A stretch of 10,892 bases of DNA from an uncultured bacterium (GTDB lineage: Bacteria; Abyssobacteria; SURF-5), in assembly GCA_964510165.1 (NCBI GenBank), contig CAZEBC010000138.1:1-10892 (forward strand), given 5' to 3'. Positions 1-9,000 of this stretch are shown here, in pieces (within the stretch, counting starts at the first letter, position 1; each line of letters opens with the position of its first letter). The position numbers were made by a program.

Positions 1-3000
1 CAGATGAACCGCATCAGCGCACCCGTCTCATTTCGGAATTGATGAATCTCGTTCGGAAGCACAAAGACGACCGACCCGGCGGGCGCGGCGTGTGTGCCCT
101 TGTCGGAAACCACAGTAGCGGTTCCCTCAAGAATGAATACCTCATGTTCCCACTCATGCCGATGGTGCGGAGTAAAGCCGCCGGGCTGAACATCAAACAC
201 TCTCATGTAGAAGTTCTTGGCGCCGTCTTCCTTCGATATGACCCATCTGATGGCCACGCCCTCCGCCCCTTGCTCCTCCACCTTTCGACAATTGATCTCC
301 TTGTAATCAGCAATCTTCATCCGTTCTCATCCTCCATGTTGGCCAGGCAGTTTGCGCGCGTTCCTCAATCCATTATAACAAACCACGACTTCCCAACCGT
401 CTCCTCTGCCGAAGAAAGATTTCTTCTGGAGTCGCCCGCGGCAACCGTGCTATAATACATCTCAGCATTCATCAAAAGGACGAACACCATATGCCGAAGA
501 AAGCGCCATTCGCATCCGACGAAACCAGCCGCGTGCGCGCCTTCCTCATGAAGATCCTCCACCCGATTTGTCGCGCGGCCGGAACCCTCGTCGGAATTCA
601 AGGTGAGAAGATCGATGACTATTTCATCGAACGGAATAACCGTGCAATCGCGGCTACAGGGAAAAAATATCGGCCCGAGGAAGTGCTCCTGGTTCTCCCC
701 CATTGCCTGCAGGACTGGGAATGCCCGCACCGCATAAACGCCGATATCCACAACTGCAAAGCCTGCGGAAAATGCAGTATCCCTCAACTCATCGAGATCG
801 GCGACCGGTACAAGGTGCGCATGCGCGTCGTCGGCGGAGGTTCGGCGGCACGCCGGGCCGTGTACGACAGCATGCCCTCCTTCGTTATCGCAGTCGCCTG
901 CGAACGCGATATGGTGTCAGGCCTCAAAGACGCGCTTCCCCTGCCAGTCGTCGGAATCCTGAACGAACGCCCTAACGGCCCCTGCAAGAACACCAGAGTC
1001 GACCTCACCCGTGTGGAACAAACCCTCGCCATGCTCATTGACGGCCGATAGCTTTCTGATCTCACGGTGGCCTGCACTTGACACCTATCCACAATGCTTG
1101 ATATAAATAAGCGGTCAACGCTGAAATATTCGGGATTCTGAGGGAATACTCAAGATTCGAACTCGAAACCCGAAACTCGAAACCATTTTTCCGGAGGTCA
1201 CCAATGAGTCAAACCAATGTATACCAGGAACTGGCCGAACGCATGTTCATGGGCCATTCCGATATTGTCAAGCGCCTGTTCCAGATGATCGCGAACGAGC
1301 AAGAAGCTGCCCTCATGCTCGCGATGCCTGGGACGGCCGAAGAACTCGCCGAAAAGACGGGCCGCCCGCTCGGTGACGTCGAGAAGTCCCTCGGCGTTCT
1401 CTTCCACAAAGGACTGGCGTTCGTCTCGGGAAGTTCGGGCAAATACCGCATGTGTCGCGACATAGTCCAATTCCACGACGCCTCCATCCTCTGGCCCGAG
1501 GCCTCCAAGCAATTCCATAACCTCTGGAAGGAGTTCACCGACAAGGAATGGGGCCAGGCGGTCAAGGCTATCGAGGCGATGATGGAGCGGCCGCCGACCC
1601 GCATCATCCCCGTCGAGGCCGCCCTCGAGGCCAAGAACCAGATTCTCCATTATGAAAACGTGCGCGAGATCGTCGAAAACGCCAAGCGCATCGCCGTCAC
1701 AAAGTGCACATGCCGCGTCGTCGACGGCAAGTGTGGGCTTCCGGTCGAGGCGTGCATCCAGATTAACCGTGCCGCCGAGTACGCCATCACCCGAGGGACC
1801 GGCCGCGAGATCGACAAGAAGGAAGCCATGGACATCATGAAGAAGGCCGAGGAGGCTGGGCTGGTGCATGTCACCATGAACACCGACCACATAGACCACT
1901 ACATCTGCAATTGCTGCTCCGACTGCTGCATCGGCCTGCGCTACATGATCACGGAGGGAACCAAGTTCGTGTCGCCGTCCAGATTTCAGGCCGTCATCGA
2001 CGAGGATGCCTGCATCGGATGCGAATCATGCGTGGACCGCTGCTACTTCGGCGCAATAACCGCTCAGGAAACCAACGGCGAGACCAAAGCCAATGTGGAC
2101 GCCGAAAAATGCGTCGGCTGCGGCCTCTGCAGCGTCGTCTGCCCATCCGACGCAATCCACTTCGACGAGGCTCGCCCGGCCGACTTCATCCCGACAGCGG
2201 GCAAGTGAAACTCAATACACCTGCCGAAAAACATTCGCCCCTGCGAACTGCTACGTTCGCAGGGGCGAGTCGTCTGTGATACCCTTGAACTTTACATAAA
2301 CTGATCCAGCGGCTTGCCCGTGTGCATGCTGCGCTCCATCATCCACGAGACCATGCTCGACGGCGGCTCGATGCACTGGTCGGCAGGTTTGCGAACAAGC
2401 AAAATAGACTCGCTCGGACACGTCGGCGCGCACACGCCGCAACCGATGCAGCGATTTCGGGCAACCTCATAGTGATCGCCTTGCTCAGAAATAGCGCCCA
2501 TCGGGCAACGCTCGTTCGCGCATGTCCCGCACGCCACGCACGTCTCCGGATTGATCGAGGCCCAGAAGTTCGATTTCGCGAGCATCCCGGGCGCGTTGAA
2601 CTTGCTGATGCCCCGCAACAGCCCGCAGCAGCACGAACAGCAATTGCAGAAATGATACGTGTCGTCGCTGAAGCTCATCGTCGCATGGACGAGGCCGGCA
2701 TCCTCCGCTTCCTTCATGATTCGTTCGGCCTCCGCCCGGTCCACTCGCCTGCCGCCGTAATCCACGTCAAACGCATGCTCCGACATAGACATCGTGATGC
2801 AATTGCCCTTGGGCTTGCTGCACGGATTCCCCAGCGCCTCCTGCTCCTTCTGGCAGATGCATTCGCGCGTGATGAACACCTTCGCCTGGTCCATCAATCG
2901 GCGTACGCTCTCAAACGGATGCACCTCAAGCTGCGCGTCCACTGCCTGCTCAATCGGAATCGTGTGCATGAACGCAGGCTTCGTGTTGCCAATCCGCTCA

Positions 3001-6000: not shown

Positions 6001-9000
6001 TAGTTGCCCGTGATATGAACGAGGCCTTCCTCGTTCGACTTCTTGAGTATCTCCAGCGTCTCGTCCACCGTTATCTCGCGGGCCATTCCGTTCGCGACAA
6101 TATAGCGGCCAAGGCTGCCGAAGTGCAGGCAATTCTCGGTCGAATGCTCACATTCGCCCTCACCCGCATACTTCCGCATCAACCGGCATGGACAGTGCGC
6201 CACGGCCTGGTACGTCGTCTCCTTCACTTTCTCCACCAATCTCTCATAAGGCGAGACCTTGCGGGTATCCAAGATCGATTCCTGCACCGGAATCACCCGC
6301 GTCATCGGCATGTCCGACAGCCCGCCGATTTCATGGTAGAACGCGCTGCGGGCGTACTTCAGCCACAGCGGCGCCAGCTTCTCGGCCTCGGGCGACCGCT
6401 TTCCGCCCCAGAATGGTGTCTCGCTCAAGCCCACCACCGTCGGCAATAGCCGATATAGCGGCTCATCGCCGCCAAGCACCACAAACACCGTCCCCTTCTT
6501 CGCCATCTGCTCGAGCATCGGCCTCAATTCCCCCTCGGCCATGCCCGTGCGCTCGGCAAGCGCATCCAGCGCCATCGGCAGAAACGGCAGCTTCAGCGCA
6601 AGCTCAGCCTCTTTCTCGGTATACAGAATCTTCAAAATCTCGAACAGTTCTTTTGCCTTGGGAGCGCCTATCGGCATCGAATTCAGATACTCGGCCAGTT
6701 GCTCATACACCCCTTGCCCGCTCATGTTTCATTCTCCTTCTCCTCTATCTCTCCAGCCATATTCTATACTGACCAGTTAGTATGGCAAATCTAGCATATC
6801 CCATCCCCGCTGTCAAGCGCCTCATAGCCCCATCGTGGATAACCTCTCTCTTCATTGTCTCTCAACCCTAAACCCCGGGAACCCTGAACCCCCATCCCAC
6901 ACTTGACAAGACTTATATTCTAGATTATAATTCTACCATGCCGAACACAAAACATACAAAACACTCGCATACCGCCGCGCGACGCACTCAGATCATCCGG
7001 GCGGCGCTCGCATGCTTCGCCGACACCGGCTTCACACAAACCACCATGGAAGACATCCGCTCTCGCTCCGGCGCAAGCAACGGAAGCATCTACCATCATT
7101 TCAGGGACAAGGAGGCGCTTGCGGCTGCGGTGTACCTGCAGGGAATCAGCGACTACCAAAAAGGCCTATTGGCGAAACTCAGGTGCCACCCCGACGCCCG
7201 GGCCGGCATCCGCGCCATCGTGAGTTACCACCTCGCTTGGATAAGAAAACACCCCGACTGGGCTCGCTTCCTCTTGGAAATGCGTCACGCCGAATTTATG
7301 GCAGGCGCAGAACAAGCCATTACGGTTCAGAATCGCGCATTCATGACCGAAGTCATGAAATGGCTCAAGCCGCGCGTCGCCACCGGAGTGCTCCGACAAG
7401 TTCCCGCCGAAATGCTTGTCTCAATCATTTTCGGGCCGTGCCAGGAATACGCGAGGCTCTGGCTCGCCGGACAAGCGCGCACCAAGCTCCTCGATGCAAT
7501 CAACGAGTTGTCCCGCGCAATCTGGCTTGCGCTCGGCGGAAAAGAAGAAACGTAAACAAACAACAAGAAAGCGGAGGGAAAAACCATGGACGAGAAACGC
7601 ATGTATCAATTGGCCGAACAGTTTCTGGGCGCGTGGAACACACAGGACGTCAATCGCGTCGTCGCCGTGTACACCGATGACGTCACTTATGTCGACCCAA
7701 ATACCCGCGGACCGGTCAAAGGCTCTGACGCGCTTCGCCGGTATCTTACCAAGCTCTTCGGGCACTGGAAGATGCACTGGAGTCTGCGCGAAGCTTACCT
7801 CTTCGATGACAGAAACGGCTGCGCCGTCCTGTGGCATGCCACGTTTCAGAAACCCGACGGCGGCCCCATCGTCGAAGCCGACGGCATGGACTTCGTCCGC
7901 GTCCGTGACGACCGCATCGAACGCAACGAGGTCCACTTCGACCGCGCCGTCCTCGCCCCGCTCATGGGGTAGCTTCACCACTCCGACCCGTGGAATATGA
8001 AAGGAGATAGCAATGTCGAATGAAAAGTCTCTCGATGTCTTCAAGGGTATGCTCGGATACAGCGACTCGGAATTCGAACAATGGAAAGCCGTTCCTCGCA
8101 ACGTCCAAGTGGCCGAACGAATGCCCGACTTCGCGCGCTACCGCGTCGTCGTGGAAGTCCTTAAATCGCATGGCTGCGTGATGAACCATAAGCCGGGTGA
8201 CAAGTTTTACTTCACCGGCAGCGGAGCGCTTCTGTGCAGCGAAGGACCGCCCCATATCTGCGCGGGCGCGCTCGCTCCCGTGATGACATTCGCCCTCAGA
8301 GTTCTTGACAAGATAGGTGCCGGTCTCGATCCCACAAGGTACGCCTTCAATCGCGTGCGCTGCGTTGATGTCGGGCTCGACAACGGCGGCTGGGGCGAAA
8401 TCCTTATGGAGATCAGAGTGGAAAACGAGTAAGCCGAATACTCTCGATTTTCTTAGATAACATCTATGGTACGCGCGGAGTCATTTGCAGGCGAATCCCA
8501 AGTGTTCCGCGTAACCTGAGCCTTCTACTTCTCCCGACGGCATGCGTGCGCCCGTCATGCGCCCGCGATAGTCGAAGCCGTACAGGAATCCTTCGCCGAA
8601 GATAGGCATGGGTTTCGTTGCGCGCTCCGCTTCGTACACAAACTCGGCGGCCTCGGCGCGTTGTGTTCCCACCCACCGCCGCGGAACACGGATTGGACGG
8701 CCCCCGTAATTGTCGAAAACTTCCCAGTCAAGAACCCTGCATTCATAGTGACGCATGAAGAGAGCAGGCTCTCTCCCCCGCCGGATCAGTCCCAGGTTCT
8801 TGAGCTTCAGTTTGGCCGGCCCTTCGGTCCAAAGTGAAAGGGCGAAATCGCCGCCGGGCAAGCGCAGCGCCTCGTAACGAAAAACTTTCAGAGGCGTGCG
8901 CAGGGGGAGCATATTCCTGCCCCAACCGTGGTCATGAAGCGCAGCAGCCAAGAGCGAACCGCGCGCTTCTTTCCATCGCCACTCGAGACGGCAATCGCAA

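Follow-up and report, generated by a model that had tools for sequence, protein, structure and literature searches.

Introduction

The closest described system is IsrA (VUZ27132.1), a putative isoprene reductase of Acetobacterium wieringae ISORED-2 that belongs to the 'clade 9' GltD-like oxidoreductases and was assigned its role from proteomics and genomic context (PMC10134865). The CxC motifs of IsrA lie at residues 180/182 and 254/256, with its ferredoxin motif starting at residue 289; nickel was proposed as a putative constituent of its 'cluster V', a site whose likeness to the A-cluster was suggested by the same authors, and in their model the domain terminates the cluster chain and has a predicted tunnel (PMC10134865). 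The isr operon also encodes VUZ27135.1, a 350-aa '4Fe-4S ferredoxin' (ENOG4105DQ9) that is co-induced by isoprene and aligns with residues 1-270 of IsrA, with a ferredoxin domain at its end. It was regarded as an electron carrier, and in a neighbourhood analysis the stand-alone ferredoxin was not associated with hypA/B (PMC10134865).

Results and discussion

Organization of the locus

The window, that is the whole 10,892-nt stretch of contig C138 that was analysed, comes from the genome of an uncultured Abyssobacteria bacterium (G000). P0001, P0002, P0003 and P0004 are real, intact genes (Table 1). An earlier note described two members of a family with a winged helix (wHTH), a Cys-rich core and a 2[4Fe-4S] ferredoxin as flanking a Mo enzyme; P0002 and P0003 are co-oriented with the Mo gene, and the description missed a third, convergent member, P0001. 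The Mo-enzyme sandwich that it placed on contig C241 is real, and the arrangement of the window does recur in relatives, with the P0003 ortholog beside the Mo ortholog in five of the eight family-f1 relatives that carry the latter and the P0002 ortholog likewise in five of these eight. No GltD-like gene was found among the scanned ORFs of the window, and neither hypA nor hypB adjoins P0001, P0002 or P0003.

Table 1. Features of the locus, with positions along the window.
Feature	Position	Strand	Remarks
P0001, wHTH + Cys-rich core + 2[4Fe-4S] family member, 334 aa	1204..2208	+	Convergent on the Mo operon
Hairpin, 14 bp, GC-rich, with T-tail, after P0002 between two convergent stop codons	2235..2268	-	Terminator-like; consensus match only
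P0002, wHTH/Cys-rich family member, 360 aa, CNCCSCCC type	2292..3374	-	Last gene of predicted operon
P0004, Mo/W-bisPGD oxidoreductase, 724 aa from ATG 5606 (GTG 5627 possible)	3432..5606	-
Glu138 of P0004, motif LAQEY	5193..5195	-	Alignment column of the FdhF Mo-ligand Cys/Sec
P0003, wHTH/Cys-rich family member, 363 aa, CNCCADAC type	5634..6725	-	First gene of predicted operon
Cys-rich core domain of P0003, residues 138-279	5889..6314	-	Equivalent of the IsrA 'cluster V' region
Sigma70-like promoter TTGACA-17-TG-TAGATT, upstream of P0003	6788..6816	-	Consensus match only
Perfect-consensus promoter of TetR gene, back to back with the P0003 promoter	6903-6931	+	Consensus match only

An abundant family with a Cys-rich core

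With a profile built from P0001-P0003 and a threshold of E<=1e-42, G000 yields 11 full-type copies, the number previously given, to which a core-only profile adds two short forms without the wHTH (on C186 and C270), making 13. Genomes in the window's family carry 8-23 paralogs each, the core is found in 3,198 clusters formed at 50% identity, and the wHTH/Cys-rich family is abundant in Syntrophales and similar anaerobes and present in 42 of 151 sampled Bacillota. A 641-aa 'fusion' on contig C34 was rejected as an assembly artefact, as it spans a run of N. Gene neighbourhoods support the earlier description of this Fe-S family as abundant, unnamed and associated with soluble oxidoreductases: the neighbours are many unrelated redox enzymes, such as acyl-CoA dehydrogenase, OYE, SdhAB and Mo enzymes.

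Eight Cys and one His had been called invariant. Among 149 aligned sequences the cysteines come close to this, with C178, C180, C192, C199, C250, C252 and C253 kept in all and C257 in 148, while His237 is kept in only 114 (Asn241 in 142). Position 255 is Cys or Asp in 147 of the 149 and, judged from sequence, is likely a ninth ligand; the ligand candidates of the P0003 core are these eight cysteines and D255.

P0001-P0003 (334-363 aa) have Pfam matches to Fer4 only, bar a weak TrmB match at the N-terminus of P0001 (E 4.8e-4), and the CCG Pfam domain has no match on them. The predicted model of P0003 is a single compact unit (pLDDT 95.2, pTM 0.92). Searched against solved structures with Foldseek, the Cys-rich core gave zero matches at E<=0.001, and with VIA-align against 48,161 chains its best Z was 4.2 (an RRM protein; rmsd 4.8, 69 aligned residues); the CCG domain of HdrB, ferredoxin:thioredoxin reductase and the ACS A-cluster domain are absent among the VIA-align matches listed for the core. 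In the model, the core apparently adopts a new fold.

The wHTH-like N-terminus with its weak TrmB match, and the many paralogs next to different operons, could point to a transcription regulator that senses redox state or metal, and the earlier note had offered a redox sensor as one possibility. We consider this very improbable. The recognition helix (63-77) is acidic, residues 50-95 have a mean net charge of +0.6 (99 sequences), and conservation in the wHTH is limited to core hydrophobics and K77-G78, with no conserved basic recognition helix or wing. Moreover, the wHTH is retained in 900-aa enzyme fusions and missing from short members, the model is compact, and TetR/MarR genes already lie near many of the family's loci. 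The fusions, the acidic helix and the one compact model thus argue against a DNA-binding sensor.

Relation to IsrA

The Cys-rich core matches 901 proteins of 637-2000 aa, and the best 120 of them all have GltD-type Pfam domains. Fusions of ~900 aa, which join the family to a GltD-like NAD(P)H/FAD module, have the Cys spacing, architecture and neighbours published for IsrA, the match being made through the residue numbers printed in PMC10134865. Ten Bacillota fusions have Cys at 183, 185, 196, 204, 257, 259, 260, 262, 264 and 292 or at equal spacing (in the tenth, positions were compared as far as the first core Cys), so that offsets of +74, +76 and +109 (183/185, 257/259, 292) are common to them and IsrA. 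In P0003 the CxC motifs lie at 178/180 and 250/252 and the ferredoxin motif at 286 (offsets 72 and 108). The neighbours of the Bacillota fusions are as published, with hypA within ~3.3 kb in nine of the ten and hypB in the tenth, and DUF5692 lies near fusions as in the IsrA neighbourhood.

P0002 is 27% identical to an IsrA-type fusion over 312 aa of its N-terminal part (E 1e-28) and aligns a second time, to the C-terminal Fe-S segment of the fusion. These alignments show P0001-P0003 to be homologous to the module with which IsrA-type (clade 9) oxidoreductases begin. By the same comparison, the GltD-like NAD(P)H/FAD module of IsrA is shown to be inserted between two ferredoxin halves, and the stand-alone form to be IsrA minus this flavin module, which is new in the present analysis. 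A description of the domain, as the region at the N-terminus of IsrA, has been published (PMC10134865), so the family is not unreported; the earlier statement that it is unnamed and without papers holds for its Pfam/NCBIfam label.

IsrA and the window proteins have in common an N-terminal region of ~270 aa that no library domain covers, a pair of CxC motifs with matching spacing and a ferredoxin motif that follows the first Cys by ~109 residues. IsrA-type proteins have hypA/hypB neighbours in genomes often without HypD, as is likewise seen around stand-alone members. Full clade 9 enzymes such as IsrA are ~900 aa long and carry inserted DPD-II and FAD/NAD(P)H domains; the window proteins have no such insert, share ~27% identity with these fusions, belong to a family of 8-23 copies per genome and lie beside a Mo enzyme instead. 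Their own operons contain no hypA/hypB, which a paralog on C144 of the same genome does have, and a 49%-identical relative of P0001 sits within a hypA-hypB-family run in another genome (G229, locus L179). VUZ27135.1, compared by its published description, is of equal size and has the same ferredoxin end; it has no reported hypA/B association, whereas stand-alone members stand beside hypA/hypB in several lineages here.

The Mo/W-bisPGD enzyme

P0004 is a member of the Mo/W-bisPGD (DMSO reductase) superfamily. It shares with FdhF, NapA, PsrA/PhsA and acetylene hydratase the Molybdopterin, Molydop_binding and Molybdop_Fe4S4 domains, all above the Pfam cut-off, and an N-terminal [4Fe-4S] motif with a conserved Lys. 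Its best PDB matches are FdhF-type (E 1e-54). As noted earlier, it falls below every NCBIfam cut-off shown (276 bits against 666 for TIGR01591). Unlike FdhF-type enzymes, in which a Cys/Sec Mo ligand is followed by His, P0004 has Glu138-Tyr139 at this column, and Glu is found in 117 of 117 ungapped homologs; other DMSO-reductase-family classes have Asp or Ser. P0004 also has no twin-arginine (Tat) motif, and its operon lacks both a beta subunit of standard type and a membrane anchor. Homologs number 2,529 at E<=1e-100 among 8,000 candidates, with the Glu checked in part.

The Mo enzyme recurs beside the wHTH/Cys-rich family, though not obligately. In another phylum, a family gene is present at 9 of 40 Glu-clade Mo loci (0.2-1.4 expected), one of which holds a 68% ortholog of P0003; it is absent from the other 31, including those of the two closest P0004 orthologs (72-73%), and hyp genes occur at 0 of the 40. 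Mo-enzyme paralogs without a family neighbour also occur in G010 (two) and G000 (two of four). The previously proposed role of partner subunit is plausible on these counts, but not as an obligate one. A recurrent ferredoxin-type beta subunit is absent among the listed neighbour families of Glu-type Mo enzymes.

Linkage to nickel chaperones

In the window's class (11 genomes), 10 of 10 HypA matches lie directly downstream of a family gene, with ~0.13 expected by chance, these genomes being kin to one another. HypD is present in three of the 11 genomes, and six of the nine hypA-bearing ones have neither HypD nor PF00374, the [NiFe] large subunit. G000, at 97% completeness, has a single hypA and a single hypB, both with their metal motifs intact, in an operon ACAD-hypB-family-hypA-sdhA-sdhB that is joined by a 55-nt contig overlap (C190-C144) and has AAA/VWA (CoxD/E-like) chaperone genes upstream. 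PF00374 and HypD have no match in this genome, nor does PF00374 match P0001-P0003, as it would a [NiFe]-hydrogenase large subunit. Only 1 of the 13 copies in G000 adjoins hypA/B; other candidate Ni users there are CODH/ACS, four LarA-like and two arginase-family genes, though there is a LarC-type insertase as well.

Outside the class, a family-led scan found a hyp link at 7 of 77 loci. In Thermodesulfobacteriota a family gene occurs at 11 of 60 examined hypA loci, 10 of them with stand-alone forms (0.4-2.8 expected), and at only 2 of 10 hypA loci of HypD-less genomes. One genome that gives no HypD match has a locus (L048) in which hypA and hypB occur together with three family genes, a Glu-type Mo enzyme and a His-rich transporter-like gene. 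In Bacillota with HypA and without HypD, every hypA lies beside a family gene in five of six genomes; only 1 of 56 non-fusion matches adjoins hypA, and HypA has no match in 8 of 42 family-bearing Bacillota genomes, nor in G003 and G010. Stand-alone members thus stand beside hypA/hypB in several clades and lineages, which is new in the present analysis, and at the level of the family the linkage exceeds chance, with exceptions, in genomes without hydrogenase maturases. This repeated adjacency suggests that anaerobic microbes possess a large nickel enzyme class so far left unstudied.

The acetyl-CoA synthase (ACS) A-cluster, the CODH C-cluster and [NiFe]-hydrogenase likewise have a Cys-rich Ni site by an Fe-S chain, as is proposed for the family, and HypA/HypB are common to hydrogenase maturation and the family's neighbourhoods. 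No sequence or fold match to ACS, CODH or [NiFe]-hydrogenase was found and, unlike in [NiFe]-hydrogenase systems, HypD is missing from many carriers. The ACS amide site is Cys-Gly-Cys; the middle residue of the family's C-x-C run is Pro in 20 of 66 unlinked and 4 of 16 hyp-linked stand-alone sequences, which makes for a poor fit. HypAB without HypD or a [NiFe] large subunit might also suit a minimal hydrogenase-like electron sink, a Ni/Fe-S core that reduces protons, needs HypAB and not HypCDEF, and would be useful to fermenters and syntrophs such as the Syntrophales. Indeed, Ni-thiolate model proteins evolve H2. We find this hardly credible, however, as the sole physiologically linked member is isoprene-induced in an H2-consuming acetogen, and 8-23 paralogs per genome suit substrate diversification better than one simple reaction.

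Role of the window proteins

We tentatively regard P0001-P0003 as stand-alone IsrA-type modules, candidate catalytic Ni/Fe-S reductases fed by a neighbouring oxidoreductase, and would give this reading slightly less than an even chance. Two facts, the homology to the IsrA cluster V region and the HypA/HypB link, both absent from the earlier note, suggest that the metallocluster does catalysis and is more than a conduit for electrons. The wHTH cap and a helical linker would pack on the core, which would bind an uncommon kind of metal cluster through 8-9 ligands and connect it to the 2[4Fe-4S] ferredoxin; judging from gene context, this cluster would most likely be the catalytic site, a Ni/Fe-S centre. 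In IsrA the inserted NAD(P)H/FAD module would supply electrons. Since the stand-alone proteins lack this donor, they would have to draw electrons through the ferredoxin from a neighbouring soluble oxidoreductase, in the window presumably the co-transcribed cytoplasmic Glu-type Mo/W enzyme. Nickel could be loaded in trans by the single HypA/HypB pair of the genome, whose operon contains a family gene. The core might then reduce an organic acceptor, by analogy with IsrA an unactivated or conjugated C=C of a lipophilic compound.

It is possible, if rather unlikely, that the window paralogs contain iron only and connect the Mo enzyme with other carriers, as electron-transfer or accessory subunits. 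They would amount to an extended polyferredoxin whose core adds two Fe-S sites, and nickel would be confined to some clades (the IsrA fusions and the C144 clade). The 8-10 Cys could hold two ordinary clusters, the neighbouring redox enzymes are diverse, and the listed neighbour families of the Glu-type Mo enzymes include no recurrent ferredoxin-type beta subunit. Additionally, most members have no hyp neighbours, nor has an entire 37-row clade, in which His237 is replaced by Gln in 27 rows. Against iron-only subunits, the Cys set is identical in hyp-linked and unlinked members, and the former are scattered over at least 4-5 clades, one of them sister to the P0002 group, and include the relative of P0001 at 49% identity; the position of the domain at the end of the modelled IsrA chain, with its predicted tunnel, also counts against them.

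Alternatively, the family could be no enzyme itself but accept Ni from HypA on behalf of other enzymes, as a scaffold or carrier for their metal clusters or as a maturation factor. This would account for a gene between hypB and hypA, for the AAA/VWA chaperone genes upstream in the C190-C144 operon and for many paralogs with a different enzyme beside each. It seems improbable nonetheless: fusion with an NAD(P)H/FAD electron-supply module suits a redox catalyst, and Mo enzymes, acyl-CoA dehydrogenases and SdhAB are, to our knowledge, not Ni enzymes.

Implications

Extended from the window to the whole family, the catalytic reading becomes more doubtful, though worth stating as one joint claim. 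The family would be the catalytic unit of a large, hitherto unrecognised class of Ni-Fe-S enzymes in which both the fold and the cluster type are new and which HypA/HypB would mature with no help from HypCDEF. With them anaerobes may hydrogenate unactivated C=C bonds, drawing on interchangeable donors: in IsrA the inserted NAD(P)H flavin module, and for stand-alone forms acyl-CoA dehydrogenase, SdhAB, OYE or Mo enzymes, the donor in the window being a member of a Mo/W-bisPGD clade with a glutamate metal ligand.

Only about ten nickel enzyme classes are known, and we know of no general explanation so far for orphan hypA/hypB in anaerobes without hydrogenase. The proposed Ni site of one 900-aa enzyme, IsrA, is shown here to be a free-standing and very widespread module that keeps the hypA/hypB link also when it stands alone, and the Glu-ligated Mo/W-bisPGD clade would add a ligand type to its superfamily. 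The soluble 340-360-aa size makes the questions of a Ni/Fe-S cluster and of diene hydrogenation directly testable. If the reading is true, many genes labelled '4Fe-4S ferredoxin' would be enzymes.

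Family members and gene order

Four intact genes lie within 1204-6725: P0001, P0002 and P0003, in which a winged helix, a cysteine-rich core and a C-terminal 2[4Fe-4S] domain follow one another, and the Mo/W-bisPGD enzyme P0004. In the three family members Pfam and NCBIfam detect the C-terminal 2[4Fe-4S] domain alone. The genome holds 11 full-type copies, the number given in the earlier note, and the core profile raises the total to 13; same-family relatives have 8-23 matches each, and the relative G010 has one. A 641-aa family-SDR "fusion" spans a run of N and was treated as an artefact, that is, as two genes.

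Short members without the winged helix (277-300 aa) also occur. In several relatives one type adds a copy immediately upstream of the P0003 ortholog, so that as many as four members surround a single Mo enzyme. P0291 (677 aa) places a family module behind a hydrophobic N-terminus of ~270 aa without Pfam match, probably multi-pass, and is a possible membrane-linked form; P0317 is another single long form, of GltD type. A second search with the C124 copy gave no other long fusions among 208 candidates, which is weak evidence. No RNA holder was found among those listed.

Elsewhere in the window, a Cys-rich DUF116 gene precedes P0001, as it does the P0001 ortholog in the relative G004 (L134). The TetR run, divergent from the Mo operon, was not seen at the corresponding position in any of three mapped relatives (L133-L135). 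The 347-aa protein that overlaps a radical SAM/SPASM gene has DUF6670/AttH/CrtC-like lipocalin barrels as Atlas neighbours (score 0.97, with a recognition value below the reliable range), and the pair may possibly act on isoprenoids or lipids.

Features of the window and of related loci (window positions unless a contig or locus is named)
Feature	Location	Strand	Remarks
Cupin gene	3-320	-	contig edge
DUF116 gene	491-1051	+	
P0001, 334 aa		+	convergent on the minus-strand series
P0002, 360 aa		-	last of the three-gene series
P0004, Mo/W-bisPGD enzyme, 724 aa		-	between P0003 and P0002
P0003, 363 aa		-	first of the series P0003, P0004, P0002; short gaps between
Sigma70-like match	before P0003-P0004-P0002	-	consensus match only
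Terminator-like hairpin, 14-bp	after P0002		consensus match only
Glu138 of P0004	5193-5195		
Promoter of TetR run	6903-6931	+	12/12 consensus match
TetR, SnoaL/ketosteroid-isomerase-like, weak TIGR04076-like genes	6938-8432	+	
347-aa protein (no Pfam match), radical SAM/SPASM gene	8481-9524, 9535-10575	-	
hypA/hypB operon of the same genome	C190:1-5000 (L136), C144:6505-10456 (L006)		AAA, VWA (CoxE-like) and Fe-S protein genes before acyl-CoA dehydrogenase
Family-SDR "fusion"	C34:13104-15029		artefact
Short members	L133:14151-15050, L134:3303-4163, C186:1909-2742, C270:1-851		the last two in the same genome
Tandem Glu-type Mo paralogs and 541-aa ORF	L137:7123-13285		relative G010

A conserved cysteine core without a structural match

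The earlier note described eight invariant cysteines plus a histidine. Among 149 aligned sequences the cysteines hold (seven invariant, C257 in 148), while His237 occurs in only 114, a variability that rules it out as a defining ligand; Asn241 is present in 142, and Cys or Asp occupies position 255 in 147. The family is real and large: a core-only profile finds 3,198 cluster representatives (50% identity; E<=0.001; 1,978 at 1e-10), which come from many lineages of anaerobic bacteria and from some archaea.

Folding and searching the core on its own, which had been left undone, yielded no structural match. Its model (pLDDT 86) found nothing in the PDB with Foldseek at E<=0.001, nothing in BFVD, and in a wide VIA-align search a best Z of 4.2, none reaching 5; such absences are no proof of a new fold. 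A profile search of PDB sequences had no hit at E<=10, and the ESM Atlas neighbours of the core (best 0.89) carried no informative Pfam family. Full-length P0003 is modelled as one compact unit (pLDDT 95.2, pTM 0.92) that retrieves ferredoxin rows only, with Z up to 9.4. The earlier note had named a redox sensor as one probable role; the recognition helix of the winged helix is acidic, which speaks against that role, and we regard a DNA-binding sensor as very unlikely.

Kinship with the putative isoprene reductase IsrA

Among 1,052 candidates, 901 proteins are long relatives of the core, and the 120 of them listed are fusions of ~890 aa with GltD-type domains. One such fusion aligns with P0002 in two stretches, the first of 312 aa (27%, E 1e-28) reaching the first ferredoxin motif, the second covering the fusion's last Fe-S motif and tail; the flavin module is thus an insert in the ferredoxin domain.

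The passages on IsrA in the paper that describes it (PMC10134865) present a 901-aa protein, isoprene-induced in Acetobacterium wieringae, whose N-terminal 270 aa are given no known domain and whose CxC motifs (180/182 and 254/256) belong to a six-Cys "cluster V", where the authors propose Ni. They further report hypA near 73% of 988 IsrA homologs, no hypCDEF, and in the isr operon a 350-aa "ferredoxin" that aligns with the first 270 aa of IsrA (PMC10134865). The cysteines of our fusions (183, 185, 196, 204, 257, 259, 260, 262, 264, 292) have exactly the published numbers plus three, and DUF5692 neighbours occur in both (PMC10134865). The window proteins share the chassis of these fusions minus the flavin insert, and the match to IsrA itself is one of published numbers and architecture. 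The earlier note called the family abundant and unnamed, with no paper found; its size stands, and its domain has already appeared in print as the N-terminal part of IsrA (PMC10134865). One paper has thus touched on the family within a putative enzyme, and it is not categorically new. A literature search that covered few subscription journals gave no published account of the stand-alone form, the cross-lineage hypA/hypB link, the modular wiring or the Glu-type Mo partner.

Nickel chaperone genes beside family genes

The neighbourhoods of family genes revealed hypA and hypB, which encode nickel chaperones. In the 11 genomes of the window's class, 10/10 HypA matches are directly downstream of a family gene, an adjacency that counts as one event among kin; HypD occurs in 3/11, and six of nine hypA carriers have no match to HypD or to a [NiFe] large subunit. 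The window's genome has a single hypA and a single hypB, each with its metal motifs preserved; both belong to the operon acyl-CoA dehydrogenase-hypB-family-hypA-sdhA-sdhB, spread over two contigs overlapping by 55 nt. This operon ends in SdhA-like and SdhB-like genes without a membrane anchor gene, and the relative G007 (L132) has the same order.

Outside the class, a family gene is found at 11 of 60 Thermodesulfobacteriota hypA loci (10 stand-alone; 0.4-2.8 expected). The 60 were taken from 90: 10 lie in genomes lacking HypD, 26 in genomes with several hypA, and 24 are lone hypA, for the most part distant from hypD; the 30 left out are mostly beside hypD. One of the family members at these loci is 49% identical to P0001. 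Of 10 Bacillota fusions, nine lie within about 3.3 kb of hypA, and in five of the six Bacillota genomes with HypA and without HypD every hypA adjoins a family gene. At locus L048, from a genome without a HypD match, hypA and hypB occur together with three family genes, a Glu-type Mo enzyme and a gene for a His-rich membrane protein. Hyp-adjacent members make up 7/77 loci (10/80 minus three from genomes of the window's own class) in a scan whose query, the hypA-linked C144 copy, biases it to its clade. On a tree of 129 rows, built by a quick method with long branches unsure, the 25 hyp-adjacent rows need five changes, at least four forced by starred branches.

Against these links, P0001-P0003 have no hyp neighbours in the window, nor has a 37-row clade of the tree; only 1/56 non-fusion Bacillota matches adjoins hypA, and 8/42 family-bearing Bacillota genomes lack a HypA match. 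In HypD-less Thermodesulfobacteriota only 2/10 hypA loci hold the family, where the idea that it explains all orphan hypA fails. The window's genome also encodes CODH/ACS, LarA-like and arginase-family proteins. Taken together, the data give nickel good support as a lead for the family as a whole; for P0001-P0003 we infer it. Iron-only electron transfer strikes us as rather unlikely.

An operon that recurs in Desulfobulbaceae-like genomes (L077, L084, L088, L101, L105, L106) has a family gene of the hyp-less clade after metallo-beta-lactamase-fold, OYE/dienoyl-CoA-reductase-like, hotdog-like and acyl-CoA dehydrogenase genes, labels that come from clustering, partly by eye.

A molybdenum enzyme with glutamate in the ligand column

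P0004 has all three molybdopterin domains and, as reported earlier, passes none of the NCBIfam cut-offs shown. In HMMER alignments to FdhF-type structures, Glu138 stands where these have their Mo-ligand Cys/Sec; it is kept in 117/117 ungapped homologs, and a distant paralog (L037) has Asp there. GGGGQ and C14/C18/C46/K48 are conserved, and the P0004 group has no twin-arginine motif. The usual Mo ligands in this superfamily are Cys, Sec, Asp and Ser, and our literature search returned no description of Glu ligation in the DMSO-reductase-type superfamily. Motif variants in the clade are LAQEY, LAQEL and LTLEF. The window's genome has four Glu-type enzymes (window, C241, C132, C129), two flanked by family genes; the nearest named orthologs carry the depositor labels Ca. 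Abyssobacteria, Hydrogenedentota, Poribacteria and Lindowbacteria.

The flanking arrangement noted earlier does recur in relatives, the P0003 and P0002 orthologs each flanking the Mo ortholog in 5/8. The Glu clade is present in 56/251 Thermodesulfobacteriota genomes sampled, and among 40 such loci, the top of 71 matches, nine lie within about 3.5 kb of a family gene, which in one case is a 68% ortholog of P0003, and 31, the two closest orthologs among them, have none. The pairing is recurrent without being obligate. Complex prediction for P0004 residues 1-600 with P0003 (ipSAE 0.00, 0.00; mark 0.32) speaks neither for nor against contact.

Glu-clade enzymes often occur without any listed partner subunit. 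In G010 a 541-aa ORF with no Pfam match comes after two tandem Glu-type paralogs, and no family gene is nearby.

Proposed function

Homology, domain order, insert architecture, a conserved ligand set and gene links are established here, and a tentative scheme can be set on them. Electrons would enter through the ferredoxin domain, the core would carry the catalytic cluster, HypA/HypB would load Ni into it in trans, and the Mo enzyme would act as donor in place of the flavin insert. The analogy with IsrA and, more loosely, the neighbours elsewhere (SCP2, START, desaturase, OYE and acyl-CoA dehydrogenase genes) make a C=C bond in some lipophilic compound the likely acceptor. The scheme as a whole, a Ni/Fe-S core fed by ferredoxin with a Mo donor and a C=C acceptor, is one we find plausible, at a little under even chances. 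We consider it improbable that the family serves as scaffold or carrier, and proton reduction by the family proteins seems the faintest prospect. Strain Y, in the passages on its substrates, reduces dienes and not ethene, propene or fumarate (PMC9765523). Two 2026 preprints, in their portions on Pelotomaculum enrichments, describe induced hypA/hypB and leave the responsible enzyme open. No purified enzyme of this kind was found in the literature search.

The clade of Mo/W-bisPGD enzymes with a candidate Glu ligand is worth study on its own, and the stand-alone form of the family makes a candidate new class of nickel enzymes directly testable.
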